This document shows, in pieces, positions 4,917-49,855 of a stretch of 64,000 nucleotides of DNA. The notes beneath the pieces were generated by a model that was given only the letters and a program-made list of their open reading frames with translations, was not told the origin of the DNA and searched no databases. Numbering within the stretch: the first letter of the stretch is position 1; each line of letters opens with the position of its first letter. The stretch spans positions 2,880,232 to 2,944,231 of the forward strand of contig CBDAQU010000002.1 in NCBI GenBank assembly GCA_965199235.1, read 5' to 3'. The position numbers and the translations under genes are program-made. The stretch is from Acetobacteraceae bacterium. Lineage in GTDB: Bacteria; Pseudomonadota; Alphaproteobacteria; Acetobacterales; Acetobacteraceae.

Positions 4917-5262
4917 GATTGTTGCTCCAGGTTGGTCGTGACAGCGGGGTCTGCCCTCTGGTGCCCTGAGGTCCTTGACGGAGCCCCTGGCGACGGCCGA
5001 ACCGGTAGTCCGCAATCCGAGACAGGCCTGCATCAATCCAGGCTAAATCTTACTAAGGTCAATAAATCCAGCTTGAACAGAGCTTTACACGTTTCAAGGC
5101 GGTAGCTCTTAGGCCTTGTCCGAGCTAAGCTTGGCTGCTTGTCGGGTCACTCGCCGGCGCGCTCCTGTCCAGCATCGGCCTGCAACCGCCGCAGCATTGA
5201 TGTCGGGCCGGTTCTTGCGGTAAGCCGCCCGCGCGCGGCTATCACGCCGCGGGAGCGTTCCG

Positions 5263-7467: not shown

Positions 7468-7883
7468 ACGACCAGTCAAGCATCGCAGGTGCCGCATCGA
7501 ACGCGGACACAGACCCGACAGACATTACGATCGAGTCCCTGACCGCTCTGCTAGACGACGTGATGGCTGCGAAGGAAAAGCACTACATCGTCATCGCAGT
7601 CTACGCATTGCCGAAAGACTGCGTCATCGGCAGTCGCAGTGGCGGGCATGATGTTGGTGGCACACCTGATGGGCTGACCGGCGTCCCGCCTGGCCGAAGG
7701 AATGCGATCTATAGATTTCCGATCGTGGACAAGGTGGATTTCGCGCGCGTACAGCTCGCATCAGCCGTGATCGAGCGATTCAAGAAAGCCAATGAGGTAC
7801 AGGCGGTGGTAGCCACGTCGAACCACCTTTACGCTCAGACGGCCTTCGGAGTCGAAAAACACCACCATCCCGACAGAGCGTGA
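7464..7883 (+). CDS. Hypothetical protein (139 aa)
   Basis: ATGA overlap with the upstream stop (translational coupling); no family recognised. Confidence 0.55.
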   Translation: MNDQSSIAGAASNADTDPTDITIESLTALLDDVMAAKEKHYIVIAVYALPKDCVIGSRSGGHDVGGTPDGLTGVPPGRRNAIYRFPIVDKVDFARVQLASAVIERFKKANEVQAVVATSNHLYAQTAFGVEKHHHPDRA

Positions 7884-7901
7884 ACTGGCTCCGTCCACCT
7901 G

Positions 7902-8010
7902 ATACCGACCGGCCGTGGGACCGACACACCCAAATGAACAAAGGTTTTCGGTCTTTTTTGCAAAAAGGACTGCTTGCCTTTCGTGAGTCAGACTCAAACC
8001 CGGTCGGTAT
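7902..8010. promoter_or_regulatory. Pair of TetR-type operator-like half-sites (ATACCGACCGG ... CCGGTCGGTAT)
   Basis: Perfect 11-bp inverted repeat at 7902-7912 and 8000-8010. On the minus strand TTGTCA directly precedes the second site. Confidence 0.4.
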
Positions 8011-26228: not shown

Positions 26229-26238
26229 TGAACTGCGC

Positions 26239-31956: not shown

Positions 31957-32469
31957 TTACGGAACCGGCTTGGCCTGTTCAGGGCTGAACTCCCCGGCGA
32001 CGCTGAACCGGCGCTGGGCGCCGGCCCCGGCTGAGGCTGCCAGCAGAGCCGGCCAGTCATCAGGCGGATTGCCGCTGGCCAGCATCCTGCCGAACACGGC
32101 GTAAGGATCGCTCGCCGCCCCGGCCTTGCGCAGCGTGTCGCGGTCGTTGACCCAGGCGTAGACGACCACCCGCGCCTTCAGATCGGCCCGGAACAACAAC
32201 CGGAACCGGTTGCCGGCGAACTTGGCCCGGAACCAGTGGCGGTGCTCCCGCCCGAGCGTGTTACCCTGTCGGAACTCCGGCGCCAGCGGGTCGCGCGGCA
32301 CACGGTCCAGGATCAGCGCGTGAATGGCCGCCAACAGCCGGGTGTCGGCCTTGCTTCGCCATCCCTCCGGATCGGATCGCCTGGCCCGCTCAACGGTCGC
32401 CAGCCAGCGCTCGACCTGGTCAAGAAACAGCGGGTGGGCATAAAGGCGCCAGCCATGGCGTTCGATCAC
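31957..32469 (-). CDS. yhaV: Type II toxin, YhaV family (RelE superfamily ribonuclease)
   Basis: HGWRLYAHPLF, FRQGNTLG...HWFRAKF...RFRLLFR, VYAWVNDRDTLRKAG...DPYAVF..ML..GNPPDDW. Confidence 0.9.
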   Translation of the reverse strand: MIERHGWRLYAHPLFLDQVERWLATVERARRSDPEGWRSKADTRLLAAIHALILDRVPRDPLAPEFRQGNTLGREHRHWFRAKFAGNRFRLLFRADLKARVVVYAWVNDRDTLRKAGAASDPYAVFGRMLASGNPPDDWPALLAASAGAGAQRRFSVAGEFSPEQAKPVP

Positions 32470-32472
32470 CGG

Positions 32473-32805
32473 CTATATGGTCACCTGACCCTCTATAGCT
32501 GCGTCTAGGTCCATGTCCGCCATCTCGCCCGTCAGATCCTCCATGCGGGTGATCAGGACCGGGGTGATCGGCAGCACAGCGACGGCCGGCCGGCCGGCAA
32601 TGTCGGCCTCCACCAAGGCAAGAAAGGGCGCCAGAGCCGGGTCGGCGACATCCTCGTCAGGCAGCCCATGCACGGTGACGGTCTTCCCCTCCACCCGGAA
32701 CGCGATGCGGCCGCCATACCCGACTCCAAGCGCCTGGCGGACGGTCCTCGGCACCGTTGTTTGTCCCTTGGCGGTGATCGTGCAGAACTCCTCCACGATG
32801 GGCAT
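32473..32805 (-). CDS. prlF: Type II antitoxin, PrlF/SohA (AbrB-like)
   Basis: RBS AGGAGG; TITAKGQTTVPRTVRQALGV..GGRIAF; DPALAPFLALVEADI; C-terminal DLDAAIEG. Confidence 0.88.
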   Translation of the reverse strand: MPIVEEFCTITAKGQTTVPRTVRQALGVGYGGRIAFRVEGKTVTVHGLPDEDVADPALAPFLALVEADIAGRPAVAVLPITPVLITRMEDLTGEMADMDLDAAIEGQVTI

Positions 32806-36765: not shown

Positions 36766-36883
36766 GGCGGGCTTCGGCCTAACCGTCGCACCGACCGCCA
36801 CGTCCACAATCGCACCCGCCCGATCCAGCACCCCCGCAACGCTCGCCAACCTCCCCCCAACCCACCATCCGACAACGCCCTAC
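36762..36883. repeat. Degenerate REP doublet with GTAG ends
   Basis: GTAGGGCGG...CCGCC (36762-36799) and inverted GCCCTAC (36877-36883), adjacent to a RAYT remnant. Confidence 0.5.
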
Positions 36884-36889
36884 CTCCCC

Positions 36890-37095
36890 GACACACCCCG
36901 AGCCTCACGCGCGCGAAAACTCGAAAACGGCCGATCCGCAGCAACGGCGAGCAACCCATGCTCCACGGGATTGCAATGAGCATAGTTCATGTGGAGCCGC
37001 ATGATCCCGCTCATCGCCAACCGTGCGCGTCCAGTACCGGCGTTGCCACGCACTGCATTCGCGCTTGCGCACCAGGGAGGCGCGCCTTTCCTCCT
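36890..37095 (-). pseudogene. REP-associated tyrosine transposase (RAYT) C-terminal remnant
   Basis: RKRECSAWQRRYWTRTVGDERD, then a frameshift into HMNYAHCNPVEHGLL..AADRPFSSF. This matches the RAYT pattern WQRRFWEHxIRDExD...YIHxNPVKHGLV...WPxSSF. Confidence 0.75.
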
Positions 37096-37134
37096 GTGTC
37101 CCACCTAACAATCCGTCGGGACGAGAAGATACTG

Positions 37135-37246
37135 TCGGCAAGCGCTCGACCGCAGCCACCATGAAACGCGCCAGGTCGTCGACGCAAATCCAGGCTTTCA
37201 AGTGTGGCGGTAGTAGAAGGCCTGGTCGCGACCAGGCCGGTTTCAC
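37135..37246 (-). mobile_element. IS1182-family transposase N-terminal remnant
   Basis: RDQAF / LLPPHLKAWICVDDLARFMVAAVERLP (frameshifted), like the RDQxFLLPPxLxDWLPxDDLAHFVVxAV start of these transposases; a perfect 20-bp palindrome at 37219-37238 disrupts the start. Confidence 0.65.
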
Positions 37247-37321
37247 GCAGAGTGTCCGCGAGTAGGCGGACCGTGCAGGACGCGTCCTTGACGCCCATAA
37301 GCGACGAGCTTAGCGTCCATA

Positions 37322-37338
37322 CTGTAGTCGGATTACAG
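37322..37338. promoter_or_regulatory. Island operator, copy 1 (CTGTAGTCGGATTACAG)
   Basis: 17-bp palindrome about 80 bp upstream of the first CocE gene. Confidence 0.6.
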
Positions 37339-37419
37339 ACAGACCTTGGTCGATAGTCGCCTTAGCGCGTTTCACGCAAAGGTGCCTCATTGGCATGAGA
37401 TCGTCATTAGGGGGGGTTG

Positions 37420-39711
37420 ATGGCTGGCTTGGCCCAATCGCACGAGCGGTATTCGACTGCCGAAAGCCTCGTTGGCGTTTTTGCCGGTCCGGTAATCGGG
37501 CTGAAATACCAGACGCCGACCATGCGCGGTTTGACGAACGAGCGCGGTGAATTTGGCTACCGACCAGGCGAGATCGTCACATTCCTGCTGGGACGTCTGG
37601 TGCTCGGGGCGACCCAAGGTGCACCTCGGGTAAACCTTGCGCAGCTCGTCAGCCGGGTGTCCGGCAATATTGGTAAGCTCAGCGACCCTGCGGTGACAAA
37701 CCTCGCTCGGCTGCTTCAAACGCTGGATCAGGACGGCGATGTGGAGAACGGCGTAACGATTGCGCCTGCCGTGCATGACGTTGTCGGCTCCAGGATCATC
37801 CTGTTTGACCGGCCACCGCTGGTTCATGGCGAGATGTCGGCCGGGCAGGACAGCTTCGGCAGCGATCCGGCCGTTATAAGCCTTCTCAGCGATCTCAATG
37901 CTGCGCGGGAAGTCTTCACCGCCAAGACGCCTCGTCAGCTCTGCACGGTCGCTGCCGCTCGGAACGAAGTTCGCCGGAACGTCCGCGGCATCTTGAAGAT
38001 GACCGACGTGAAAATCCCCTTGCGCGACGGCTCCTTTGTCTACGCCGATGTCTTTCGCCCGGCTGGTGATGAAAGACACCCTGCCGTGATGCACATGAGT
38101 TTCTACGGCAAGAGCTTTTATCATGAATGCATCTGCTGCCAGGCCGACGCCCTCGAAAAGGAGGCCATGGAGGACCGATATTTCTCTGGCAACCCGGACG
38201 GCTTACACTCCGAAAACCACGAAAGCGTGGACACGTCCGAATGGGTTCCGAACGGTTACGTGGTGATCCGCATAGACGCCCGCGGCGTCTGTAACAGTCC
38301 GGGTCTTCAAGCACCGCTCAGCCGCCAAGAAGCCGAGGATTACTACGACGCCATCGAATGGGCCGCCGTCCAATCCTGGTGCAACGGCAACGTCGGGCTC
38401 TGGGGGATGTCCTACGTCGCGATGACGCAGCATAACGTGGCAAGCCTGCAGCCGCCTCATCTGAAAGCGATGATCGCGTTGGGCACGGACTCCGATCCCT
38501 ATAACGAGTACCTCCGCGTCGGCGGCCTGTGGTCTGAAGCGTGGTGGACCTGGTGGTGGAAGATCTGGTCTGGCAAGAATCATTGTGGCGAACGGAGAGA
38601 GACGGACTGGATGGCCCGGCTTAGGGCAAGTCCGTTCAACGATCCGGCGCTCTACAACCCGCACAGCACGAGTTTCATGAAACCTGAAATCGGGAGGGTG
38701 ACCGCTGCAGTCTGGATCGTTGGCCCTCAAACCGGAGCGGTCATCCACCAGGTCGGCAGCAGTGAAACTTTCATTCGCTCCACTGGAGCGAAAGGCAAGA
38801 AGTTCGACTTCATCGACGCCTGGTTTCCCCATTGCTATCGCAGCGACACGGTAGCTGAGCACATTCGGTTCTTCGACTACTGGCTCAAGGACCTCGCTAA
38901 CGGGGTGATGGATGATGCGCCCGTGCGCATCCAAGTCAGGACGGGGAACGCGGCCTACTATGAGCTGCACGAGAACGAGTGGCCGATCGCCCGGACGCAT
39001 TACACTCGGTTCTACCTGGATGCGTCACCGTCGGACTGGCACGGCGACAAGCAAAGGCAGGACTTGCTGCGAATATCGCACACGCCGCCGGTCGTCGAGA
39101 CCAGCAGGAGCTACGACGCTGATCTGGACCTGGGGCAGCCAATACCGTTCCCGAAGGGGCACGTTGGAGGCACGCCGCGCTGGTCAACCGGGGTCTCATT
39201 CGTGAGCGACCCGTTGTCAGAGGACATGGTGCTGGTGGGCTACATGAAGGTGGTGGTCTGGGTGTCATCGACGAGCAGTGACATGGATGTGCATGCCTCG
39301 CTTCGTGTGATCGACGGAGACGATCGCGAAATACGCTACGAAGCTGTCGTCCTGCCCATCGATCCTGAGCACGTCTCGCCAGTCGGTTATGGCGCGCTGA
39401 AAGTGTCGCATCGCAAACTCGACGATGCGCGGGCCACCGAGTATTGGCCGATGCACACCCATACTGAGGGCGACTACGCGCCGCTCGGCAAGGACGAGGT
39501 CGTCGCGATCGAGGTGGGGCTCCAGCCCAGCTCGGCGCTGGTCAGAAAAGGCTCGCGGCTGCGGCTCGACATCCAGCCAACCGCTCCAGCAGGCGTTCCC
39601 TCCCGCGCCTATGATGAAACCTATCACGTGGGCGCCACGAACACGATCTACACGGGACCTGACCGCCCCAGCTACCTGCAGCTTCCAGTCATCCCGATGA
39701 AAGGAAGCTGA
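37420..39711 (+). CDS. CocE/NonD family hydrolase with an extra N-terminal domain of about 190 aa
   Basis: KIPLRDGSFVYADVFRP, SFYGK, GLWGMSY (nucleophile), C-terminal LKVSHRKLD and IYTGPDRPSYLQLP. Confidence 0.88.
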   Translation: MAGLAQSHERYSTAESLVGVFAGPVIGLKYQTPTMRGLTNERGEFGYRPGEIVTFLLGRLVLGATQGAPRVNLAQLVSRVSGNIGKLSDPAVTNLARLLQTLDQDGDVENGVTIAPAVHDVVGSRIILFDRPPLVHGEMSAGQDSFGSDPAVISLLSDLNAAREVFTAKTPRQLCTVAAARNEVRRNVRGILKMTDVKIPLRDGSFVYADVFRPAGDERHPAVMHMSFYGKSFYHECICCQADALEKEAMEDRYFSGNPDGLHSENHESVDTSEWVPNGYVVIRIDARGVCNSPGLQAPLSRQEAEDYYDAIEWAAVQSWCNGNVGLWGMSYVAMTQHNVASLQPPHLKAMIALGTDSDPYNEYLRVGGLWSEAWWTWWWKIWSGKNHCGERRETDWMARLRASPFNDPALYNPHSTSFMKPEIGRVTAAVWIVGPQTGAVIHQVGSSETFIRSTGAKGKKFDFIDAWFPHCYRSDTVAEHIRFFDYWLKDLANGVMDDAPVRIQVRTGNAAYYELHENEWPIARTHYTRFYLDASPSDWHGDKQRQDLLRISHTPPVVETSRSYDADLDLGQPIPFPKGHVGGTPRWSTGVSFVSDPLSEDMVLVGYMKVVVWVSSTSSDMDVHASLRVIDGDDREIRYEAVVLPIDPEHVSPVGYGALKVSHRKLDDARATEYWPMHTHTEGDYAPLGKDEVVAIEVGLQPSSALVRKGSRLRLDIQPTAPAGVPSRAYDETYHVGATNTIYTGPDRPSYLQLPVIPMKGS

Positions 39712-39764
39712 CCCGGACCGTGTAACCCGATCGTGTAGGAGCCCCGTCCGATGGTCGGCGATCG

Positions 39765-40757
39765 ATGTTTGAAGCCGCTGCTGCCATGAGCGTGCCCGGC
39801 ATCCTCCAGATCGTGATCGGCAGCGATAACCTGCCGCTGTGCAAGCACCTGTATGCGAGCGTGTTCGGCTTTTCAGGTGCGGGCGAACGACTGATCTACT
39901 CCGAGCATAACGGCCGAGTCATGGGCCTTGGCCGATGGGGTGGCGCGACCGTGCTCTACATGGTCGGGCGACAAGAACTCGTGCAGTTGGAATTCTGGAC
40001 ACACACAACGCCACGTCAAAGGTCGCTGCCTGCAGATTGGCGTCCAAACGATATCGGCTTTTGCCGCTTGGGCATCTCGGTCCCGGATTTTTACGCGACG
40101 CTCGGGCGCCTTGCCGCCGCCAACTGCCCGGTCTTGACACCGCCCATAAAACACGACGGCTTGTGGCGCGTCTGCTTTCGCGATCCCACCATCGGCATTC
40201 CAGTGGAGATCATGGAGGAGGGCGAAGCTCTTCCGGGCACGCGAGATCGATACCACGATCTCGACCCAGCGATCGTGTATGCCGCGGTTTCGGTCATCGA
40301 CCTCGGCGAGGCAGTCACCTTTTTCGGAGACGTCGTTGGGCTGGAGAAAACCGGCGTCGAGCTTCACACGCCTGAGCACGAGGCGCTTTGGGGGTTGTCG
40401 AACGCCAAGAGGAAAGCCGCGCTGCTCCGCGGCGGAAGCGTTTTTCTGGAGATCGTCGAGTATGAAGAGCCAGCCGGTCGGGCCACGTCGCCCGACGGGT
40501 CGCTCGACCGACAAGGTTTCAAGGCTGTCGCCGTAGGCTCTCGCGATCCGGTTGAGACAGGGGCGATCTTCCGCCGTGTGAAGGCGGCGGGGTTGAGCTG
40601 GACTGTCGAGAAGCCAGCCTCCTTCATCGGGGGCAACCACGTGGTAGGCGCGGTGGCGCACCAGATGAAAACGCTTTCCGTGCCGCACGAGTTGGAACGG
40701 CAGTTCGGCTACTCACCCGACCCGGGCAAATGGTGGCGGCCTCCCCCGGGAAAGTGA
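39765..40757 (+). CDS. VOC (glyoxalase/bleomycin resistance) family protein, tandem domains
   Basis: Two repeats of the ...FF/YxxVxG(F/L)...LEF/EIVEY... pattern; PNDIGFCRLGISVPD, FRDPTIGIPVEIME. Confidence 0.78.
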   Translation: MFEAAAAMSVPGILQIVIGSDNLPLCKHLYASVFGFSGAGERLIYSEHNGRVMGLGRWGGATVLYMVGRQELVQLEFWTHTTPRQRSLPADWRPNDIGFCRLGISVPDFYATLGRLAAANCPVLTPPIKHDGLWRVCFRDPTIGIPVEIMEEGEALPGTRDRYHDLDPAIVYAAVSVIDLGEAVTFFGDVVGLEKTGVELHTPEHEALWGLSNAKRKAALLRGGSVFLEIVEYEEPAGRATSPDGSLDRQGFKAVAVGSRDPVETGAIFRRVKAAGLSWTVEKPASFIGGNHVVGAVAHQMKTLSVPHELERQFGYSPDPGKWWRPPPGK

Positions 40758-40800
40758 CTTGGTCACGTCGTTTCCCAGCCGCACGAGTATTGCTGTCAAA

Positions 40801-40817
40801 CCGGAATCCGGTTACAG
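40801..40817. promoter_or_regulatory. Island operator, copy 2 (CCGGAATCCGGTTACAG)
   Basis: Perfect right half-site just before the RBS of the monooxygenase gene. Confidence 0.5.
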
Positions 40818-40838
40818 TTTAACAAGGAGGAACCCGCC

Positions 40839-42116
40839 ATGTCGTACATTCATCCCGGCCAGTCATCCAAGCTGCCTGCAATGCTCGAACACATACGCGA
40901 GCTAGGTCCCACTCTGCGCGCGCGCGCGCCTGAGGCAGAGCGCGCTTGCCGGCTGTCATCGGAGACGATAGCCGATCTTGACGCCACTGGCGTATTCAAG
41001 ATCGGCACGCCGGCCGAGTTCGGCGGCTACGAGTTCCCTGTCTCGCAGCAGTTCGACGTCATCTCCGAAGTTTCCAAGTGGGATGGGTCGTGCGGGTGGT
41101 GCGTTTGGGTGGCAGCCGTCACCAACTGGATACCTGTCAGGTCCGGAAAGCGTGTGGTAGAGGAAGTTTACGGCCAGGACTGGGTGGGGCCGCGCGTCGC
41201 AGGATCCAGCCATTTCCCCGCCACTCGCGGGCGGGCGCGGCGTTGCGAGGGCGGGTGGATCGTATCAGGCGGCCCCTGGACCTTTGCCAGCGATTCCCTC
41301 TGGGCGCCCTATACCAACCTCGGCTGCATCGCCGATGACGGCCAGGGGCCGTATCTCGTCGGTATCCAGGTTCCGATCAATCAACTTCGGTTCCTGGACG
41401 ATTGGCACGTCGCCGGCATGAAAGGCACGGGCAGCGTCTCCCTGATGCTCGAGGAGTCGGAACTCTTCGTTCCCGAGTATCGCGGTGTGGTGTTCAGCGA
41501 CATCGTTGCCGGCACGCTTGATCACGGCCTGAAAGGATCGATCTGGCAGGCGCCGAATCTTGGCTGGGCGTTCAGCCTGATGGCCGCGATGTCGGTCGGT
41601 CTCGCGCAAGGCGCGCTGGAGCGGTTCGTGCAACGCTCTGCCGGCCGGCCGATCCGCGGGACGACGTATAAAAACCAGCTCGAGGCGCCGTTGACGCATT
41701 TGATGCTGTCCGAAGTCCATTCCAAGATCCGCTCGGCATCTCTGATGGCGCGCGCAAACGCCGAGGAGACCGACCAGCTCGGGCGTTTGGCTGCAGCAGG
41801 AAAGCATCCGGAGCAGTCAGAGCAGCAATTGTTCACCGCGCGCGTTCTGGTTGAAACAGCCTACGCAACCAAGTGGTGCGCCGAAGCGATCGAGCTGTTG
41901 CAGCGCAACTCGGGTTCTACCGCAATCATGGATAGCGAGCCGATCCAGAGAGCTTGGCGCGATGCCCGCGTGATTACGCTGCATGGAGCACTCAACCTCG
42001 AGGCTCTTGCCGAGAATTATGGACGCCTGATGGCAGGCCTGCAGCCGCACAAGTTCGAAGGGATTACCACGCTCGACCGCTTCACCGCTGCGCCGATCAA
42101 GGCGACGGTCACTTGA
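40839..42116 (+). CDS. Acyl-CoA dehydrogenase-fold flavin-dependent monooxygenase (HsaA/IacA-like oxygenase component)
   Basis: RBS AAGGAGG; LRARAPEAERACRLS, PAEFGGYE, DGSCGW, W.FASD, DDWHVAGMKGTGS, IQRAWRDARVITLH. Confidence 0.85.
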   Translation: MSYIHPGQSSKLPAMLEHIRELGPTLRARAPEAERACRLSSETIADLDATGVFKIGTPAEFGGYEFPVSQQFDVISEVSKWDGSCGWCVWVAAVTNWIPVRSGKRVVEEVYGQDWVGPRVAGSSHFPATRGRARRCEGGWIVSGGPWTFASDSLWAPYTNLGCIADDGQGPYLVGIQVPINQLRFLDDWHVAGMKGTGSVSLMLEESELFVPEYRGVVFSDIVAGTLDHGLKGSIWQAPNLGWAFSLMAAMSVGLAQGALERFVQRSAGRPIRGTTYKNQLEAPLTHLMLSEVHSKIRSASLMARANAEETDQLGRLAAAGKHPEQSEQQLFTARVLVETAYATKWCAEAIELLQRNSGSTAIMDSEPIQRAWRDARVITLHGALNLEALAENYGRLMAGLQPHKFEGITTLDRFTAAPIKATVT

Positions 42117-42285
42117 CGGGCTCCTAGCAGCTCGTCATCGAATGCCGGACCAGAGAACGCCCGGAACCAGCAGCGCGGAACACGCCAACTGAGTAATGGC
42201 GTGTGTCACCGTGGACAGTTTTGCCGAACGACGCGTCGCGTAAGCCGGTGCGACGGCAAGCCCTGTCAACGTGGGATAGGATTGA

Positions 42286-43947
42286 ATGGCTAAGGTTGAA
42301 CGTGGCATCGATCAAGACGTAATGACGCCCGGGCTCGACCCTGCTGAGCGTCGTTACCCCGGGCTCAACCCCCGGCAGGAGGAGGTCGACGGGCTCACCA
42401 TCGACTATGACGCCGCCATCAAGCTTCGCGACGGCATAACGATCTACGCCGACATATACCGGCCAGCCGACCAGGCGGATCCTCTTCCGGCCGTGCTGTT
42501 GTGGAGCGCATACGGCAAGCATTGGCGTTGGCCAGAACCTATGCTTCGTGCTTTCACCAACAACGCCAACGTTTCGCGCCATGCTCCGATCGAGTCCCCT
42601 GATCCGGCCGTGTGGTGCCCGGCAGGCTACGCGATGGTCGTGCCTGATCCCCGGGGCATCTTCCAATCCGAGGGAGACGCTACGGCTTGGTCTCCTCAGG
42701 AGGGAGACGACATTCACGACACCATCGAGTGGATTGCCGAGCAGCCCTGGTGCACCGGAAAGGTTGGCATGGGAGGCGCGTCCTACTTCGCCATCGTGCA
42801 ATGGTTTGCCGGAGCGACTCGGCCACCTCATCTGGCTGCGCTCATGCCATATGACGGGATGAGCGATCTCTATCGAGAGGTCGTCTGCCACGGTGGCATT
42901 CCGAACGGCGGTTTCGTCAAGTTCTGGAACTCCCAGACCAGAAGTTCCCGAAATCGCGCGGAGGACTGGGTGAAAGCCATGGAGCTTCACCCCTTCTTGG
43001 ACGAGTATTGGCAGACAAAATGTCCCGAGGTCGAGCAAATCCAGGTGCCAACCTATGTGATCGCCAGTTGGTCGGACCATGGCATACACACCAGAGGCTC
43101 CCTGTCGGCCTTCACGCGTCTCGGCTCCGAACAGAAATGGCTGGAGGTCCACGGCCGCAACAAATGGGCGCAGCTGTACACCCCAGAGAGCGTCCGGCGG
43201 CAGATGGCGTTCTTCGATCGATTTCTGAAGGACGTTCCAAACGAGGTAGATATTTGGCCGGCGATCCGACTGGAAATTCGTGAACGTATCGACGTTGGGG
43301 AGGAGCGTGCAGAAGCCGAATGGCCGCTTGCCCGGACGGAGTACCGTCCTTACTTTCTCGACGCAGCAACTGCAGCGCTGAGCGCCACGCCGGTAGCCTT
43401 GGAGTCGTTCGTCGCTTACGACGCAACGAGTGCCGAGCCGCAGGCGCTCTTCTCCCATACCTTTGCGACAGACACCGAACTGACCGGCTATTTCAAGCTG
43501 AAGCTTTGGGTGGAGGCTGACGGGGCTGACGACATGGACCTGTTTACGGCCGTCCAGAAGGTCGATCAGTCCGGGCAGCTCGTGACTTTCTACTACATAA
43601 CCCGTTTCAAGTTTGGCCACGCCGCGCATGGCTGGCTACGTGTCTCCCACCGAGAACTCGATGCGGAGCGTAGCCGGATTTATCAACCGGTGCATCCCCA
43701 CCAGCGTGAAGAGAGGCTGCGACAAGGCGAAATCGTGGCCGTAGAAATCGAAGTCTGGCCTTCCAGCACGTTGTTTCGAGCGGGAGACCAGATGCGCCTT
43801 GTCATCATGGGAAAGGACACCTTTCCTGAAATGCCCGGTGCCGAAATCACCATTCATCCGCTGACCCGTAATGCTGGCCGACATATTATCCACACCGGCG
43901 GCCGATACGACAGCCACCTGCTTGTGCCGTTCGTTCCCGCCGGCTGA
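42286..43947 (+). CDS. CocE/NonD family hydrolase
   Basis: IKLRDGITIYADIYRP, SAYGK, GMGGASY, WSDHGIH, GWLRVSHRELD, IHTGGRYDSHLLVP. Confidence 0.92.
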   Translation: MAKVERGIDQDVMTPGLDPAERRYPGLNPRQEEVDGLTIDYDAAIKLRDGITIYADIYRPADQADPLPAVLLWSAYGKHWRWPEPMLRAFTNNANVSRHAPIESPDPAVWCPAGYAMVVPDPRGIFQSEGDATAWSPQEGDDIHDTIEWIAEQPWCTGKVGMGGASYFAIVQWFAGATRPPHLAALMPYDGMSDLYREVVCHGGIPNGGFVKFWNSQTRSSRNRAEDWVKAMELHPFLDEYWQTKCPEVEQIQVPTYVIASWSDHGIHTRGSLSAFTRLGSEQKWLEVHGRNKWAQLYTPESVRRQMAFFDRFLKDVPNEVDIWPAIRLEIRERIDVGEERAEAEWPLARTEYRPYFLDAATAALSATPVALESFVAYDATSAEPQALFSHTFATDTELTGYFKLKLWVEADGADDMDLFTAVQKVDQSGQLVTFYYITRFKFGHAAHGWLRVSHRELDAERSRIYQPVHPHQREERLRQGEIVAVEIEVWPSSTLFRAGDQMRLVIMGKDTFPEMPGAEITIHPLTRNAGRHIIHTGGRYDSHLLVPFVPAG

Positions 43948-44074
43948 GTCGTCTCGCCAATGCCGCCACGCCCGGCTTATTCTTGCGACCAAGCTAAATC
44001 CGTAGGAGCACCTGGGCGCTGCCTATCAGCACCGCCCAATGCTGTTCTCTCTGGCTGTTCAAGCGGCGTGGTGC

Positions 44075-44596
44075 CTACCTCGCGGTGATCGCGTTGAAGA
44101 AACCGACGGTCCCTGCTTTGATGTGGCTGCTCAGAACGTTCGTTTTCATGTCGGGATTATGTTCCTGGTTCGGCTCGGGGACGAGCGGATTGCCGCTCCA
44201 AGAAACCAGCCTGCAAACACGTCGTTGAATGCGCCAGCCACGATCGGTCCGAACAAGCTCGTCATCGTACCAGCCCGTTCCCAGCCATGACGGCCCACCC
44301 TTTGCTGTTTCGCGCACAAGCAGCCAGTTTCCGTAGGCGAATGCGTAAGCCTTATCACCTTCAACATGTGCCAGTTGGCCCATCATGGTATGCTGGAAGT
44401 TGTCCAAAGTGTTGTGGAACTCGGCAAAGGATCGCTTGAAGTCTGCAAGGCCCGACCATCTCGCCCCAGCCGGACCGAAATCTGCTGTCACGTTCTCCGT
44501 AAAGATGCGGTCGAACAGATCCCATTGCCGGGAGTCGAGTGCAAAGCCATAGAGGTTGAGGATCTCGATAACAGCCGCCTTGTCATGTTCAATCAT
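44075..44596 (-). CDS. Nuclear transport factor 2 / SnoaL-like family protein
   Basis: RBS GAGGAG; LNLYGFALDSRQWDLFDRIFT, HTMMG, GWYDDELVRTDRGWRIQRR. Confidence 0.88.
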   Translation of the reverse strand: MIEHDKAAVIEILNLYGFALDSRQWDLFDRIFTENVTADFGPAGARWSGLADFKRSFAEFHNTLDNFQHTMMGQLAHVEGDKAYAFAYGNWLLVRETAKGGPSWLGTGWYDDELVRTDRGWRIQRRVCRLVSWSGNPLVPEPNQEHNPDMKTNVLSSHIKAGTVGFFNAITAR

Positions 44597-44740
44597 GGTG
44601 TTCTCCTCATCGTTACGCCGCTATCCAGTCAAGTCGTGAGAGTTTTCATCCTGTGGCAACCTTAAAGCTGCATTTGATGCTCAGTCACGGCCCTTACACA
44701 GGCGGGTTGCTACACGCATCCAAGACTTCTGGTGTCACTC

Positions 44741-47191
44741 TTAAAATTTATAGCTCCCCTCAAGAAAGAACATGCGCGGCATCCCGGGTTGCGCGACGTT
44801 GACGCCCAGCGCGGGCCCTGCAGCGATGCCGCCTGTATAATAGGAGTGGTCAAACGCATTGCGGACGTAGCCGGCCAACGAGAAGCCACTGTTCTTTATG
44901 CCTTCCAAAGCGACTCTGAAATTGACGAGTGCGTAGCCGGGGATGATTGTGCCTGGCGCCACGGTGTTGTTCAAGTTGCTGAAGTAGAACTTCGACTGCG
45001 CGAAAACGTCAGTTCGGATGGATGCCCGGCCGAAGTTCTGCGGCATGTCCTCCGACAGTTCCGCAAAAGCTGATCCAGACCATCTCGGTGTGTCGGCGTA
45101 AGGACCAAATAGCGTTGCTTGGCCCAGAACGTTGGTCAGGCCGTTAGTGTACCGAGCGTCCGTGTAACTGACACTCAGCCCGAGGTCGAGCCACTCGGCC
45201 GGACGGATCTCGCCATCGGTCTCGAAGCCGGAGATTTCCGCTTGCGGCACATTGACCGTAATGCCCGACACCGAACCATTGACCGGGTTTATCACGTAGT
45301 CAGTGCGCTGCGCGTTATTGACCCATTGGTTGAACGCGTCAGCATTCAGTCGGAACGGTGTGGAGCCAAGGTGCCCTTCGTATTTCGCGCCAACCTCAAC
45401 GTCGGTGGTGGTTTCGGGATAGAAGCCCGGACCGCCAGCGCCACCCGTTCCTGGCAGGGACGCCACGGTGGGGTTGAAGCCCCCGCTCCTAAAACTGTGC
45501 CTGGACACGACGTAGAGTAGTAGGTGGGAATTCAACTGCTCCTGCATGCCGAACTGCCAACTCAGCTTGGTTTCCGACGAAGACTGATGGTTTGAAGCGC
45601 CTGCCGGGCTGTAAAGCGCGGACCCGGGAAGCTGAATTGCGGAGTAATCCTCTCCGGTATAGCGAAGCCCCGCAGTGAAGCCTAATCCTCGCACACCTGT
45701 CAGCCGGCTCAGGTCGTACGTTCCTTGCGCATAGCCTGCGTATGACGTGCTCGGAAGCTTGTAGTAATAGACGCCGTTGATGAGCGGAATCACCGGCGGC
45801 AGACCGAGCACGCTGTCGTCGACGCCGCCGTAATTGCTTGAATTCAAGTAGTAGAAGCCTGCGACGTAGGTGAGTTGATCGTTGAAGGTTTTGCCGAGTA
45901 TCTGGACTTCCTCGGAGTAGTCGGTACTGTCCATGTTGATGCCCTCGAAGGGCACCAGGTTGAGTTCGTAGGGAACGCCTCCAGCATCGGTGTAGTCGAC
46001 CGAGTCCGCGCGATCGAAGCCGAAGATGTTCTTCAGGGTCATGCCGTTGCCAAGATCCACCGTCGTGATGTTGGAAACGATGGTGTTGTCGGAACGGTGC
46101 AAGTAGCTGCCGGGCGCATCGACATAGTTCGTGCCGTGCAGTTTCTGCTGCCGTAACGCGTCGGCGATCCCCAGAGGGTCAGCCTTGGGATTGGCTGACA
46201 AATAAAGGTCCCAGGCACCCGGAAAGCCGATGACCTTGTCGAGAAACGGGCTGAAGAACTCCTCGCCCGTAGCATTGAGCGGAGTGCCGTTATTCGTGCT
46301 GCCTGGCGCGTATGCGCTGTAGACCTCGGACGGCGTATCCGTGCCGCCCGAATGGATGAAATCGATCACCGTGGTGTTCTGCAGCCAATCTGTCGGCTTG
46401 ATCTCAAGGCTGATGCGCCCCGCCTCATGCAGAACGGTGCCAGGCGTGGTGTCCGAATACACGTCGTGCACGTAGCCGGCGCGATGTTCGTAATCGCCGG
46501 CGATGCGGAGCAGAACCTTGTCCTGCACCAGGGGAATATTCAGCGCGCCCTGGGTTTCCGTATATCCATAATCGCCTCCGCGCGTGGTTATGTAGCCGCC
46601 AAAGTCGTTCGACGGCCTCACGCTGGTGATCAGAACGGCACCACCGGTGTCGTTGCGTCCGAACAACGTGCCCTGCGGGCCTTTGAGCACCTGAATCGAC
46701 TGCAAATCGTAGAAGGCGGACGCCGAATGCGTGTCGTCCTGCACCTCGTCGAAATACGGCAGCACTCCTGGCTGCGAGTTGCTGAACACGTCGATCGACT
46801 GGCCGCGAACGGCGAAGTTCAGCTGGTTCGAGCTGGTGCCCTGCCGCACCAGGAGGCCGGATACTGCGGTCTGCAGGTCGGATTCCGTGGTGACGGCCCG
46901 TTTCGCCAGCGCCGCAGAGGTAAGTGCCGTGACCGTAACCGGCGTTTTCTCCAGCTTCTCACTGCGTCTTTGGGCGGTGACCACAACCTGTTCGAGCTGG
47001 CCGCTATTCGCGTTCGGCGGCGTGGGTTGAGCCACAGCTCCGGCCGCAGGCTGCGTCTGCGGTGGAGTCGTTGGGGTTTGTGCATGCGCAAGGAATGGCA
47101 GGCCGGCCAAGATCGTTGTTCCGGTCAGACGGCAGAGTTTGCTGCCCACGAAGCTCCTGGTCAGGCACAATAGGCTGTTCGGTTTGCGCAT
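44741..47191 (-). CDS. TonB-dependent outer-membrane receptor
   Basis: Signal peptide; TonB box LEQVVVTAQRR; plug VLKGPQGTLFGRNDTGGAV; FRSGGFN; terminal SYKF. Confidence 0.95.
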   Translation of the reverse strand: MRKPNSLLCLTRSFVGSKLCRLTGTTILAGLPFLAHAQTPTTPPQTQPAAGAVAQPTPPNANSGQLEQVVVTAQRRSEKLEKTPVTVTALTSAALAKRAVTTESDLQTAVSGLLVRQGTSSNQLNFAVRGQSIDVFSNSQPGVLPYFDEVQDDTHSASAFYDLQSIQVLKGPQGTLFGRNDTGGAVLITSVRPSNDFGGYITTRGGDYGYTETQGALNIPLVQDKVLLRIAGDYEHRAGYVHDVYSDTTPGTVLHEAGRISLEIKPTDWLQNTTVIDFIHSGGTDTPSEVYSAYAPGSTNNGTPLNATGEEFFSPFLDKVIGFPGAWDLYLSANPKADPLGIADALRQQKLHGTNYVDAPGSYLHRSDNTIVSNITTVDLGNGMTLKNIFGFDRADSVDYTDAGGVPYELNLVPFEGINMDSTDYSEEVQILGKTFNDQLTYVAGFYYLNSSNYGGVDDSVLGLPPVIPLINGVYYYKLPSTSYAGYAQGTYDLSRLTGVRGLGFTAGLRYTGEDYSAIQLPGSALYSPAGASNHQSSSETKLSWQFGMQEQLNSHLLLYVVSRHSFRSGGFNPTVASLPGTGGAGGPGFYPETTTDVEVGAKYEGHLGSTPFRLNADAFNQWVNNAQRTDYVINPVNGSVSGITVNVPQAEISGFETDGEIRPAEWLDLGLSVSYTDARYTNGLTNVLGQATLFGPYADTPRWSGSAFAELSEDMPQNFGRASIRTDVFAQSKFYFSNLNNTVAPGTIIPGYALVNFRVALEGIKNSGFSLAGYVRNAFDHSYYTGGIAAGPALGVNVAQPGMPRMFFLEGSYKF

Positions 47192-47706
47192 CTTCGTTAT
47201 AGACCCCCTGAATCATTTATCTCTCGGCTACTCCGAGTTGTTTTTCTGGACACTGACAAACCCGCGCAATGGCACGCTTGCCGGCCCGCTATCATCTGCG
47301 GTGTACCTTGTGGCTATCGGTCATGTGCGATGATGTTGACCGGTGCCGAACGCCTCAGCCTACCGAGGCGGACGGCGGCGAAACTCCCGTGGACTTTGCC
47401 AAAGGCGCCCGACCCGCAAAGGACGAAGCTTCTTGTTTGCTGCATGTGCTTCGGATCGCTCATGCAGTGATGGGCCAGCCTCGCGCTGTGCCGCTCACCC
47501 ATCCACAATCGTTGCGAAAAACCAAACACCTGCAATGGCCAAGACCCCGTCCGACCAATCGTCGGAACGAGCTGTGTGGCATCATTGTAACGACCCGTCG
47601 GGCCTTGCCACGTCCGTGGCGATTGTGGCGATCGTCTCGTATACATAACCTCCCCTCTCCCGATGTCGCCGGTCAATTCCCGTCATTGCGGGTGCGGCAT
47701 CAAGTT

Positions 47707-47723
47707 CTGTAATCAAGTTACAG
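47707..47723. promoter_or_regulatory. Island operator, copy 3 (CTGTAATCAAGTTACAG)
   Basis: 17-bp palindrome about 520 bp upstream of the TBDR start. Confidence 0.6.
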
Positions 47724-47911
47724 TAGCTATGGCGCGTGGCGGAGTCTCGCGCAAGGGTTTAATGGACAGCTCGGCGGCCGCGGTTCACGCTGGCTCACGC
47801 CGCAAAGTCCGCTTTGATCGGGGGAAAGTTAACCTGGGCAGGCCGAGACAGCGAAGGAACGCTGCGGACCCGTGGTGCGCCGACAGCAGTAGTTCAGAGG
47901 ACGATCAGGCT

Positions 47912-48107
47912 TTTCTGCGCGAAGCGGTCGGGAAGACAGGTAGGTGGCGCTCGCCCGCGTCATGATTTCGCAACGGGAGCATACAATCGCAATCCGGCCG
48001 CTTGAGGATGGTTTGGCGCTCCACACCTAGAACGAGGAACGGGACTTCAACAGTGCCAAATCGCTGTTCGAAGATACCACAAGTTCGAGGTCGATCCCGA
48101 GGTGGTC
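47912..48107 (+). pseudogene. ku: Ku (NHEJ) protein internal fragment, degraded
   Basis: LREAVGKTG / VALARVMISQREHTIAIRPLEDGLALHT*NEERDFNSAKSLFE / VDPEVV: Ku core motif with frameshifts and an in-frame TAG at 48028. Not in the ORF track. Confidence 0.75.
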
Positions 48108-48237
48108 AGTCATTGTACACTATAGTCTATAGTTCGTGACTGGTTGGCGATGATTGCGAAGTGTGTAAGGTCGGGCCAGCCACGAAAGTGTTCAGACCTG
48201 AGACGGGCGATGGCTGGCTGGCTGTGCCCTCGCTCTG

Positions 48238-48849
48238 TCAGCGACCCAGCCGCCGCAACGCTGCAGGGTAGGCCCGCAGAGGCCGAGCGCGGTGTTGACG
48301 AGGGCAGGGTGTGTTAGCGCCCGCGGGGAGTTCCCCGCCAAGTATTTGCCCGCAACCCAATGCTTGCCCGCAACCCAAATGCTTGCCCGCAACCCAAATG
48401 CTTGCCCGCGACGTTGTACTCCTCAGATAGCAGGCCCAGATCGTTCGCCACCGCCAGCACGCGCTCGAATTGTGCCCGGGCCTCCTGCTTGCGTCCCTGC
48501 ATGTTCAGGCAGTCGGCCATCCAGCAGGAGCAGGCGAGGAACGCGCCTTTGCTCGGCCCGTCCGCCTTGGCCTTGTTGCGGCGGATCAACCCGCCGTCCG
48601 ACAGCTCGCGCCGGATGGTCGCGATGGTGGCCGCCATACGAGGATCGTCCGCCGGCAGGAAACCGACCAGCGGCAGCAGCAGGCTGGCGTCTATAGCCTG
48701 GCCGCCATGATGCTGGACGAAACTGCCCAGGCCCTGGTTCCAGCCTTTCCGGCAGACCTCGTCGTGAATGGTCTCGATCCGTCGCGATTCAGCAGCGCGG
48801 CAGTCTCGCCATCGCCCAGCAGGGCGTTGGCCTCGAGCGGATGGCTCAC
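48238..48849 (-). pseudogene. Glycoside hydrolase family 15 (trehalase/glucoamylase-like) pseudogene
   Basis: N-terminus MSHPLEANALLGDGETAALLNRDGS is fused out of frame to C-terminal IHDEVCRKGWN...DASLLLPLVGFLPADDPRM...FLACSCW...LGLLSEEY...GNSPRALTHPALVNTA; the central part is deleted. Confidence 0.85.
48344..48409. repeat. 19-bp tandem expansion inside the GH15 pseudogene
   Basis: TGCTTGCCCGCAACCCAAA units; extra 19+19+18 = 56 bp, which shifts the frame. Confidence 0.9.
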
Positions 48850-48859
48850 CTGCCCGGGC

Positions 48860-49855
48860 CTATACCTTCAGCCGCTTGGCAAGCAGGTGGACGCTGGTCA
48901 CCAGGCCGATGCCGGCCACGGCCCAGAACGCCGTGCGGTGCCGGTCGGTAAACATTTCCCAGCTGCCGAGCCTGGACCGGCTGTCGAAACGGCCATGCGC
49001 GCCGTAATCGCCTGGCACGGCATTAAACAGGTTGGCCGGCGCGTCGTGCGCCAGCGTCTCGTCGCTGAGCTGGCCCTTATAGCCGGCAGTGGCGAGATAG
49101 CGATCGATCCAGCCCGGGGCGATTCGATTGGCGAGGATCGCCTTCACCGTGGGAAAGCCGACCCAGACCTCCCGCCGCCTATGGGTGGCGGCGAAAAAGA
49201 TGGCGCGCGCTGGCACCTCCGGCTCGAAGATCGGCGCCACCGGCTTGGCCTTCATGCCCATCTTGTTCAGCGCCCAGTCGAATTGCGGCGTGTTCACCGC
49301 CGGCAGGTCCACCGTCGTCAGGTGCACGGCAAGCTTGTCGTGGATGATCTCGGAGCGCAGCGAATCGGTGAAGCCGCGTATCGCGGCCTTGGCTCCGCAA
49401 TACACGGATTGCAGCGGCACCGACCGGTACGCCAGGGCGGAGCCGACATTGACGATGGTGCCGGCGTTGCGCGTGCGCATCCGTGCAAGTGCGGCCATCA
49501 TGCCGTGCACCTGGCCGAGATAGGTGACCCTGGTGCCACGCTCGATCTCCGCCGCGGTGAGCTTGGAGACCGGCGCGAACACCGTGGCCATGGCGACGTT
49601 AACCCACACGTCGATCGGCCCGAGCTCGGTCTCGGCACGGTCGGCGGCGGCCTCGACGGCCTCGGCATCGGCCACGTCCGTCGGTATGGCGAGCGCGCGC
49701 ACGCCGTAGGTCGCGCGCAGGCCGGCAGCGGCCGCCTCCAGCCGGGTCGGGTCGCGGGCCAGGAGGGCCACATCGTAGCCCTGCCTGGCAAATTCCTCGA
49801 CGGTGGCCCGGCCTACGCCGGCGCTGGCACCGGTAACGACGACGATCTTCGGCAT
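48860..49855 (-). CDS. Short-chain dehydrogenase/reductase (SDR)
   Basis: VTGASAGVGRA, SALAYRSVPLQSVYCGAK, LPAVNTPQF. Confidence 0.93.
   Translation of the reverse strand: MPKIVVVTGASAGVGRATVEEFARQGYDVALLARDPTRLEAAAAGLRATYGVRALAIPTDVADAEAVEAAADRAETELGPIDVWVNVAMATVFAPVSKLTAAEIERGTRVTYLGQVHGMMAALARMRTRNAGTIVNVGSALAYRSVPLQSVYCGAKAAIRGFTDSLRSEIIHDKLAVHLTTVDLPAVNTPQFDWALNKMGMKAKPVAPIFEPEVPARAIFFAATHRRREVWVGFPTVKAILANRIAPGWIDRYLATAGYKGQLSDETLAHDAPANLFNAVPGDYGAHGRFDSRSRLGSWEMFTDRHRTAFWAVAGIGLVTSVHLLAKRLKV

Follow-up and report, generated by a model that had tools for sequence, protein, structure and literature searches.

CocE, the namesake of the CocE/NonD hydrolase family, cleaves a benzoate ester, and this aryl-carboxylate ester chemistry of the Rhodococcus sp. 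MB1 enzyme is the one that we propose for the hydrolases described here. In fungi, a flavoprotein monooxygenase, a DUF3500 protein, and an FAH-type hydrolase make up the 1,2,3,5-tetrahydroxybenzene pathway for gallate and 2,4,6-trihydroxybenzoate (PMC10832562). Depsides and depsidones, the characteristic polyphenols of lichens, are thought to shape the lichen microbiota (PMC8042158). We analyzed a 64,000-nucleotide stretch (hereafter the window) of an Acetobacteraceae genome (contig CBDAQU010000002.1, positions 2,880,232 to 2,944,231), which contains an island of six genes. They encode two CocE/NonD hydrolases (CocE1 and CocE2), a tandem VOC-fold protein (VOC), the oxygenase component of a two-component flavin-dependent monooxygenase (FMO), a SnoaL_4/NTF2-like protein (SnoaL_4), and a TonB-dependent outer-membrane receptor (TBDR). 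We give about an even chance to the reading that this island is a trimmed-down, acquired copy of a conserved upper-pathway module for depside-type polyphenol esters, in which aryl-ester bonds join hydroxybenzoate units, and that this module has spread laterally and is enriched in lichen bacteria. Searches of full-text literature, which left out most subscription journals, found no bacterial pathway for lichen depsides or usnic acid and no cluster with this gene set, in agreement with the first-pass annotation of this DNA, which could match the set to no described pathway.

The core of the gene set recurs in other genomes. One genome was scanned for each of 185,579 species, and 30 loci with a VOC homologue were found. 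The homologue shares at least 65% identity with the window protein in 13 genomes, in all of which a CocE2 orthologue (70–77% identity) is adjacent. The same 13 genomes contain FMO in ten cases, CocE1 in nine, and SnoaL_4 in eight, and several of the absences fall at contig ends. The VOC–CocE2 adjacency holds in every locus at this identity level with enough flanking sequence, except one (L033 in our numbering of related loci). SnoaL_4 accompanies CocE1 in the window and in L002, L003, L007, L008, L011–L014, L032, L033, L037, L039, L040, and L041, and further SnoaL_4 genes were called by Pfam in L034 and L038. The same gene set was also detected on further metagenome contigs and on a plasmid. 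The hosts belong to Acetobacteraceae, Caulobacteraceae, Sphingomonadales, Streptosporangiaceae, Solirubrobacteraceae, and Ca. Dormiibacter, so that the cluster spans Alphaproteobacteria, Actinomycetota, and Dormibacterota; the amino-acid identities of approximately 65–80% across these phyla argue for lateral transfer. SnoaL_4 varies in strand and in its position, upstream or downstream, and CocE1 either precedes VOC or follows CocE2. Since order and orientation differ between loci, the clustering is maintained by selection and not merely inherited. A lack of co-conservation had been named beforehand in the first-pass annotation as evidence that could overturn the proposed catabolic set; instead, the genes co-occur in unrelated genomes in shuffled orders.

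The composition of the cluster is layered. In two soil actinomycetes, Streptomyces montanisoli and Actinomadura opuntiae, CocE1 occurs with FMO and SnoaL_4, while VOC and CocE2 are absent; these loci add a third CocE paralogue, NmrA, cupin, CoA-transferase, and flavin reductase genes, and a contiguous trio of genes for an FAD hydroxylase, a DUF3500 protein, and an FAH-like hydrolase. Because the actinomycete loci have the first set of genes without the second, CocE1 with SnoaL_4 (and FMO) is the widespread unit, to which VOC and CocE2 were added as a rarer pair. More distant VOC relatives (36–48% identity; Thermoleophilia and other Actinomycetota) occur without the hydrolases and FMO and are located among SDRs, acyl-CoA dehydrogenases, CoA ligases, and P450s, a neighborhood that gave no functional clue.

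The distribution of the cluster is biased toward lichens. Nine of the 13 genomes are metagenome-assembled genomes (MAGs) from lichens, which derive from the survey of roughly 400 lichen metagenomes by Tagirdzhanova et al. (PMC11542873), with a yield of approximately 670 bacterial species. They were recovered from Lecanora albella, L. oreinoides, Cladonia arbuscula, Usnea subscabrosa, Everniopsis trulla, Melanohalea halei, and Parmotrema xanthinum (two MAGs), and from one sample labeled "private_X11". Species of this survey account for at most approximately 0.4% of those scanned, giving a chance expectation of about 0.05 of 13 against the nine observed; a crude binomial estimate, which assumes independence and is phylogenetically uncorrected, is approximately 1e-19. 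Furthermore, the full cluster is present on a plasmid (genes KZX46_RS22265–RS22285) of Polymorphobacter sp. PAMC 29334, the only cultured plasmid carrier, which was isolated from the lichen Megaspora. The benzoate ester cleaved by the family's namesake, the hydroxybenzoate-type neighbors in related loci, and the lichen habitat together point to an ester-linked polyhydroxybenzoate as the substrate, and the presence of two or three paralogous hydrolases per locus would suit a substrate with several ester bonds. An aromatic ester of fungal or plant origin, as originally proposed, thus is still the best substrate class, now sharpened by the association with lichen genomes.

The island itself is compositionally foreign to its host, as had been noticed at first pass and as the GC profile and the GC content at third codon positions (GC3) bear out. 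A low-GC block of approximately 11.4 kb (about 36,900 to 48,300) has a GC content of 0.55–0.63, as compared with 0.65–0.73 on either side. GC3 is 0.65–0.74 (mean 0.713) in the six block genes and 0.885 ± 0.037 (minimum 0.788) in the 31 other genes of the window, without overlap between the ranges (Mann-Whitney p = 8.6e-7). Owing to this deviant composition and the orthologues in other phyla at 65–80% identity, the block is regarded as horizontally acquired. Its genes form two convergent units, CocE1–VOC–FMO–CocE2 on the forward strand and TBDR–SnoaL_4 on the reverse strand. This arrangement agrees with the two convergent units initially described, while the gene order implied at that time does not stand, as the TBDR and the NTF2-like protein constitute the right-hand unit. 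All six genes are intact, as first annotated: the open reading frames (ORFs) are uninterrupted, their lengths match those of the orthologues, and dN/dS against the nearest relatives is 0.08–0.13 for every gene, a ratio that says more about the long-term past than about the period after insertion. The six genes are under purifying selection. Beyond these six long ORFs, nothing recognizable was found inside the block.

The family assignments proposed earlier were reproduced with Pfam and NCBIfam models. CocE1 and CocE2 score 213.5 and 260.3 bits, respectively, with TIGR00976 (cut-off 66.3), and both match PF02129 and PF08530. Residues were mapped onto a Rhodococcus CocE reference sequence, with S117, D259, and H287 taken as the catalytic triad and Y44 as the oxyanion Tyr, and the numbering relies on this reference. 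The nucleophilic Ser (GxSYxG) and the oxyanion Tyr are kept in both hydrolases. In CocE1, Ser332 and the oxyanion Tyr230 (numbered on the 764-residue ORF starting at 37,417) are invariant. In CocE2, all 13 orthologues share Ser166, Asp264, and His289, the latter two at or close to the positions expected, and Tyr76 is conserved as the oxyanion residue. A single Tyr-to-Phe exchange was observed at the oxyanion position, in a CocE3 paralogue. CocE1, for which hundreds of relatives reach at least 65% identity, carries an N-terminal extension of approximately 190 residues (37,420–38,000) in which invariant positions are dense across 22 homologues of several phyla. The extension shows similarity only to a segment of SslE/AcfD lipoprotein metalloproteases, and this similarity is faint (E ~1e-3); an AlphaFold2 model of CocE1 from a shallow alignment was too poor to use (pLDDT 53). 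The best PDB match of CocE2 is 3ib3, an uncharacterized Staphylococcus aureus protein (2e-128). No evident signal peptide was detected on CocE1 or CocE2, and therefore the hydrolysis is expected to take place in the cytoplasm.

Aminopeptidases, amino-acid ester hydrolases, and cephalosporin acylases are among the members of the S15 family. The Pfam domains of CocE1 and CocE2 (Peptidase_S15 and PepX_C) are accordingly compatible with a module for a peptide, depsipeptide, alkaloid amide, or β-lactam-like compound, in which the oxygenase and VOC would process the freed aromatic part, and the island adjoins an Opp/Dpp-type ABC importer. We consider this explanation decidedly unlikely. The models for Xaa-Pro dipeptidyl-peptidase (PepX) give 42 and 28 bits at best against a cut-off of 642, while the generic CocE/NonD model is passed, and the accessory genes that recur in related loci belong to the catabolism of aromatic acids, not amino acids. 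The importer has the composition of the host and is co-conserved in no related locus, and a functional tie between it and the island was rejected on these grounds.

FMO matches PF08028 (76.3 bits; cut-off 22.7) and stays below the equivalog cut-offs of HsaA (178.8 vs. 450) and HpaH-C2 (135.5 vs. 650). Its PDB matches are HsaA (2rfq, 5e-35) and C2-HpaH (2jbr, 2e-29); judged from these similarities, it is an ACAD-fold (group D) two-component oxygenase of the HsaA/C2-HpaH type. No NAD(P)H:flavin reductase was found in the island, and the flavin reductase of the Polymorphobacter plasmid has no homologue in the window. The related loci L032, L033, L038, L040, and L041 do encode flavin reductases, and a reductase encoded elsewhere can serve FMO. 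SnoaL_4 matches PF13577 (93.1 bits; cut-off 24) as well as Pfam SnoaL; its best PDB match is the uncharacterized 4gb5 (1e-10), and the PDB search yielded no characterized close relative.

The family of VOC is rare: only 143 relatives were found in a set of 5.8 billion proteins. It matches PF00903 (29 bits; cut-off 20.6) and PF13669 (27.6 bits; cut-off 27), and no NCBIfam model was matched. The best PDB sequence match is 1ss4 (5e-8), and homoprotocatechuate dioxygenases appear at E 0.16 or worse. The AlphaFold2 model (pLDDT 82, pTM 0.85) contains four modules in two domains, and Foldseek assigned it with a probability of 1.0 to two-domain VOC proteins, with 1zsw (a Bacillus cereus glyoxalase-family metalloprotein), PcpA (4huz, TM 0.62), two-domain glyoxalase I, and GLOD4 at the top. 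The invariant residues in the N-domain are Q15, E76, H80, R101, and E148. These residues look more like a modified site of the glyoxalase-I type, and no 2-His-1-carboxylate site is evident in the C-terminal domain.

These enzymes are the basis of the main rival explanation, a meta-cleavage-type module following the HsaAB–HsaC–HsaD logic. In this scheme, FMO would make a catechol or hydroquinone, VOC would be a ring-cleaving dioxygenase, and CocE2 (perhaps CocE1) would act as a C–C hydrolase on the ring-fission product or on a β-di- or triketone. In that case, the expected substrate is a phenolic without ester bonds, for instance usnic acid (a dibenzofuran bearing C-acetyl and β-triketone groups) or another polyketide; usnic acid presumably occurs in several of the host lichens (Usnea, Cladonia arbuscula, and Parmotrema xanthinum). 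VOC and CocE2 are nearly inseparable neighbors, as is usual for a dioxygenase and its hydrolase, and CocE1 and VOC overlap by 4 bp on the Polymorphobacter plasmid. The nearest characterized relatives of FMO, the phenol ortho-hydroxylases HsaA and C2-HpaH, make catechols, and the two-domain members structurally nearest to VOC include the hydroquinone dioxygenase PcpA. Nevertheless, known hydrolases of meta-cleavage products are α/β hydrolases of approximately 290 residues, not S15/CocE-type enzymes with PepX_C, and the metal site of VOC is non-canonical. FMO is also absent from loci that retain CocE1, VOC, and CocE2 (L006, L009, L010, and L034–L036), and two or three hydrolase paralogues per locus suit several esters better than one C–C cleavage. 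On balance, we regard the meta-cleavage explanation as unlikely.

The TBDR matches the Plug domain (PF07715; 43.2 bits, cut-off 23.9) and, partially and below the cut-off, TIGR01783 (residues 481–816, 113.7 bits). It has a signal peptide (N-terminus ending in LAHA/QTP) and a C-terminus (GSYKF) with a final Phe. Its closest relatives are a paralogue in the same genome (85% identity) and a homologue in another organism of the same assembly (75%), which flanks CocE, SnoaL_4, and FMO genes. Since both adjoin CocE/SnoaL_4 clusters, the TBDR of the window is considered to belong to the system. A TBDR beside such a cluster belongs to the subfamily of the window protein at three loci and to another subfamily at five; sphingomonad and caulobacter loci have another TBDR family, and Acetobacteraceae loci have an OprB porin.

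The first-pass annotation had called the island self-contained, a description that does not hold. The window copy lacks the GntR regulator, MFS transporter, flavin reductase, NmrA, cupin, Amidohydro_2, and ring-cleavage genes found elsewhere. The gene order on the Polymorphobacter plasmid is NTF2, CocE1, VOC, FMO, CocE2, MFS, GntR, amidohydrolase, and NmrA, followed by a hypothetical gene, TBDR, a second VOC, another hypothetical gene, cupin, flavin reductase, and an MhpA-like hydroxylase. Several of these accessory genes recur in other loci, and no homologue of any of them was found in the window. Across the related loci, the recurrent partners are GntR or TetR regulators, MFS transporters, TBDRs or OprB porins, flavin reductase, Amidohydro_2 (the family to which resorcylate-type decarboxylases belong), PheA-type FAD hydroxylases, classical extradiol dioxygenases, and FAH-like hydrolases with DUF3500. 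The FAD hydroxylase–DUF3500–FAH trio is contiguous in L040 and L041, and L033 has DUF3500 and FAH genes close together with no adjacent hydroxylase. By analogy with the fungal pathway, L033, L040, and L041 may represent bacterial versions of the 1,2,3,5-tetrahydroxybenzene central pathway, itself a recent proposal.

A second low-GC (0.61) paralogous locus, L038, is present in the same genome (contig ctg60013, ENA assembly ERZ25067524). It encodes SnoaL_4, GntR, a CocE1-like protein (49% identity), a CocE3-like protein, the TBDR with 85% identity, an FAD aromatic hydroxylase, and TetR, as well as a CoA ligase, a classical extradiol dioxygenase, an FAH hydrolase, an FMN reductase, and a cupin. 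This locus is fuller than the window copy and could supply functions absent from the window island, and the organism seems to hold a small family of loci combining CocE, SnoaL_4, and TBDR genes. These observations bear on two further explanations. The island might be a decaying, functionless passenger, a fragment separated from its regulator and partner genes, as its minimal gene content (no regulator, reductase, carrier, or downstream genes) and the pseudogene remnants and 1.1 kb of non-coding DNA at its borders would allow. Against this stand the six full-length ORFs with intact catalytic residues and low dN/dS, together with the GntR, FMN reductase, and downstream enzymes of the paralogous locus that could complement them, and this explanation is highly improbable. 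According to the other, the island is a fragment with a role in tailoring or biosynthesis, not in catabolism. SnoaL-like proteins, ACAD-type oxygenases, and VOC proteins also occur in type II polyketide clusters as tailoring enzymes, and the SnoaL_4 protein is indeed matched by Pfam SnoaL. The probability of this explanation is very low: no polyketide synthase, non-ribosomal peptide synthetase, cyclase/aromatase, glycosyltransferase, or exporter gene was found in the island or in approximately 25 related loci, while the related loci have importers (TBDR, OprB, MFS, and ABC), catabolic regulators, and ring-cleavage/FAH genes.

The depside-ester reading leads to the following scheme. The TBDR would take the compound across the outer membrane, and an unlinked carrier would move it across the inner membrane. 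Cytoplasmic CocE1 and CocE2 would then open its ester (or lactone) bonds. The HsaA/HpaH-like FMO would hydroxylate the released phenolic ring with reduced flavin from a reductase encoded elsewhere, and the two-domain VOC may open or isomerize the hydroxylated ring. SnoaL_4 may contribute an accessory step of dehydration, isomerization, or a decarboxylation-type reaction, and the products would enter ring-cleavage pathways encoded elsewhere, for example in the paralogous locus of the same genome. We place less confidence in a bolder proposal, which is possible and somewhat doubtful. According to this proposal, the VOC–CocE2 form is the first genetic determinant for the bacterial breakdown or detoxification of lichen substances, moved laterally among diverse bacteria of the thallus. 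New chemistry would come from two of its enzymes, a depsidase of the CocE/NonD type whose N-terminal domain is novel and a VOC enzyme whose active site is non-canonical. The lichen substances concerned would be depsides or depsidones (such as atranorin or lecanoric, gyrophoric, or fumarprotocetraric acid), or possibly usnic acid.

Several observations weigh against the depside-ester reading. The window copy has no regulator, reductase, or inner-membrane carrier of its own. CocE1 does not conserve the canonical Asp and His positions, with Gly aligned to the former and variable residues to the latter; the invariant H444, D464, D467, and H482 are candidate catalytic residues instead. The C-domain of VOC shows no evident His/His/Glu set and has Y172/S176 and E229/Y233 there, as judged from invariant columns mapped onto the predicted strands, and ring cleavage by VOC is a guess. 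None of the five enzyme subfamilies has a characterized member, and the closest structures are structural-genomics entries. Of the 13 genomes, four come from sources other than lichens (a Sphingobium MAG, a Solirubrobacteraceae MAG, Sphingomonas tagetis, and an Antarctic-soil Dormiibacter). Moreover, the sub-module of CocE1, FMO, and SnoaL_4 without VOC and CocE2 is common in soil actinomycetes, which indicates that the substrate class is not confined to lichens. A plant origin of the substrate is just as possible, with tannin fragments and the depside formed from flavonols by quercetinase as examples. Finally, the literature searched contained no CocE/NonD depsidase, and the known depsidases are tannases.

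The features of the island and its borders are compiled in the table below.

Table. Genes, remnants, and other features of the island and its borders (coordinates in the window)
Feature	Coordinates	Strand	Remarks
RAYT (REP-associated tyrosine transposase) C-terminal remnant, frameshifted	36,883..37,309	-	where GC begins dropping
Perfect 18-bp palindrome GCCTGGTCGCGACCAGGC, core CTGGTCGCGACCAG, FadR/GntR-like box	37,220..37,237	.	candidate operator, ~185 bp upstream of CocE1
CocE1, CocE/NonD (S15) serine hydrolase, 763 aa	37,420..39,711	+	TIGR00976, PF02129, PF08530
VOC, tandem (two-domain) VOC-fold protein, rare family	39,765..40,757	+	Pfam Glyoxalase, Glyoxalase_4
FMO, oxygenase component of two-component flavin-dependent monooxygenase	40,839..42,116	+	PF08028, ACAD fold
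CocE2, CocE/NonD serine hydrolase, 553 aa	42,286..43,947	+	TIGR00976, PF02129, PF08530
SnoaL_4/NTF2-like protein, 173 aa	44,075..44,596	-	PF13577
TBDR (TonB-dependent outer-membrane receptor), 816 aa	44,741..47,191	-	Plug PF07715
Non-coding low-GC spacer, right part of island	47,192..48,313	.	1.1 kb, GC 0.57-0.60
GH15 (trehalase/glucoamylase-like) pseudogene remnant	48,317..48,867	-	composition back to host level

The block was first delimited at 37,322–47,723 (approximately 10.4 kb); the block itself was confirmed, and these edges were not, as the low-GC zone is wider and takes in the spacer at 47,192–48,313. Of the transposase and Ku remnants initially named as its bounds, the transposase is present on the left as the frameshifted RAYT piece, and the remnant on the right is a GH15 gene and not Ku, for which Pfam and NCBIfam searches of the stop-to-stop segments of both junctions returned no match. 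In the RAYT remnant, two adjoining frames read through match positions 88–146 of 146 of NCBIfam NF047646 (E 1.3e-13, under the family cut-off), and a Pfam scan of its single frames gave no match. To its left lies the complete Opp/Dpp ABC importer, of host composition, which ends at 36,765. The spacer has no Pfam or NCBIfam match in its stop-to-stop segments, no Rfam match, no plasmid match, and no similarity to the related loci. The GH15 pseudogene survives as a short N-terminal piece and the C-terminal third (PF00723, 1.3e-10; NF041084 TreH1, 3.9e-16, positions 423–546 of 570), and it is followed on the right by host genes for an SDR, an MscS channel, and a DUF2254 protein. Within this remnant, at 48,338–48,412, a 19-nt unit (CCAAATGCTTGCCCGCAAC) is repeated four times in tandem where the reading frame decays.

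The degraded RAYT remnant is the sole hallmark of mobility at the block, and no bounding direct or inverted repeats, integrase, or adjacent tRNA were found at its borders. A DNA search of the island and both junctions against plasmids returned only a weak 95-bp match to a Lichenicola cladoniae plasmid. Decayed cluster genes were sought in the junctions with blastx and tblastx against all related loci, and the candidates were rejected as composition-driven noise. Rfam gave no match over 36–49 kb, and promoter and terminator scans did not rise above the shuffled expectation. The palindrome upstream of CocE1 occurs once in the window. A similar FadR-like box was detected in L005 only, approximately 130 bp upstream of the operon; the palindrome is not conserved across loci, and an operator shared with the paralogous locus was rejected accordingly. 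In the same region, at 37,237–37,272, the public community assembly graphs break, with many alternative continuations on both sides, coinciding with the palindrome. The island contig (37,243–46,370) has a word depth of 33 in run X1, as compared with approximately 16–31 in the flanks. The break and the depth could reflect a palindrome or repeat in several contexts, or the presence of the island in more than one genome of that community. The proteins tested were all singletons at 90% identity.

Elsewhere in the window, a second low-GC stretch (0.58–0.61; about 5,000–8,000) is possibly another acquired piece. It contains an ORF at 5,263–7,467 (forward strand) for a 734-residue protein that combines an OmpR/CadC-type winged-helix DNA-binding domain at its N-terminus with TPR repeats; a 139-residue ORF with no assigned family comes next. 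A YhaV toxin/PrlF antitoxin pair (31,957–32,805, reverse strand) is inserted between the solute-binding-protein and permease genes of the Opp/Dpp-type importer. At 23,419–28,203 (reverse strand), genes for a PrkA serine kinase and an SpoVR-like protein, with one ORF between them, are unrelated to the island; the PrkA–SpoVR trio is a conserved stress-response set in many Gram-negative bacteria.

Lichens contain much antibacterial polyphenol and yet maintain stable bacterial communities, and no gene for the tolerance or use of these compounds was found in the literature searched. A compact cluster that crosses phyla and occurs mostly in lichen-derived genomes offers a concrete handle on bacterial tolerance or use of lichen substances, and two carriers, Polymorphobacter sp. 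PAMC 29334 and Sphingomonas tagetis MG17, are in culture. Regardless of its substrate, the cluster points to three uncharacterized protein groups, namely the CocE1 subfamily with its extra N-terminal domain, the 3ib3-related CocE2 subfamily, and the rare two-domain VOC family. It also links CocE/NonD hydrolases with polyhydroxybenzoate pathways and has possible uses in the bioconversion of polyphenols and tannins.

A comparison with known systems places the island among several partial likenesses. CocE1 and CocE2 share with Rhodococcus CocE the models TIGR00976, PF02129, and PF08530, the Ser of the GxSYxG motif, and the oxyanion Tyr, and CocE2 also shares Asp and His. However, phmmer aligns only the first 110–160 residues of the hydrolase domain (E ~1e-25 for CocE2 and 1e-14 for CocE1), CocE2 is far closer to 3ib3, CocE1 has its extension of approximately 190 residues, and the genomic context is wholly different. 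Depside hydrolysis as proposed here would be a functional analogue of tannase/depsidase (EC 3.1.1.20) and of the lichen orsellinate-depside hydrolase (EC 3.1.1.40), which is not known to have an assigned sequence; tannases belong to other α/β-hydrolase families than CocE/NonD. With HsaAB–HsaC–HsaD and C2-HpaH, the island has in common a homologous FMO and the logic of hydroxylase, VOC, and α/β hydrolase. It differs in that FMO misses the equivalog cut-offs, VOC does not appear to be of the HsaC type, the hydrolases are S15 enzymes and not HsaD-type, no reductase is found in the island, and no steroid genes are nearby. VOC resembles PcpA/LinE and two-domain glyoxalase I in its two-domain architecture (Foldseek: 4huz, TM 0.62; maize glyoxalase I, TM 0.60; Bacillus subtilis 3oaj), whereas the identities are 12–16% and its invariant residues appear to fit neither the His/His/Glu of PcpA nor the classical extradiol site.

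The fungal tetrahydroxybenzene pathway (PMC10832562) has its counterpart in the trio encoded beside CocE1, FMO, and SnoaL_4 in L040 and L041 and in the DUF3500 and FAH genes of L033. The trio is absent from the window island and is linked to it through neighborhood in its relatives; by analogy, this suggests that the clusters deliver polyhydroxybenzoates. Similar to the sphingomonad TBDRs for lignin aromatics, such as DdvT of Sphingobium sp. SYK-6, the TBDR of the window is encoded beside catabolic genes, and its distant relatives (43–52% identity) include receptors of Sphingobium, Rhizorhabdus, and Croceicoccus; its putative connection to aromatics comes from the gene neighborhood. An acquired hydrolase/oxygenase cluster with a dedicated TBDR is thus a familiar arrangement, while the particular set of genes, the two uncharacterized enzyme subfamilies, and the ecological distribution are new.

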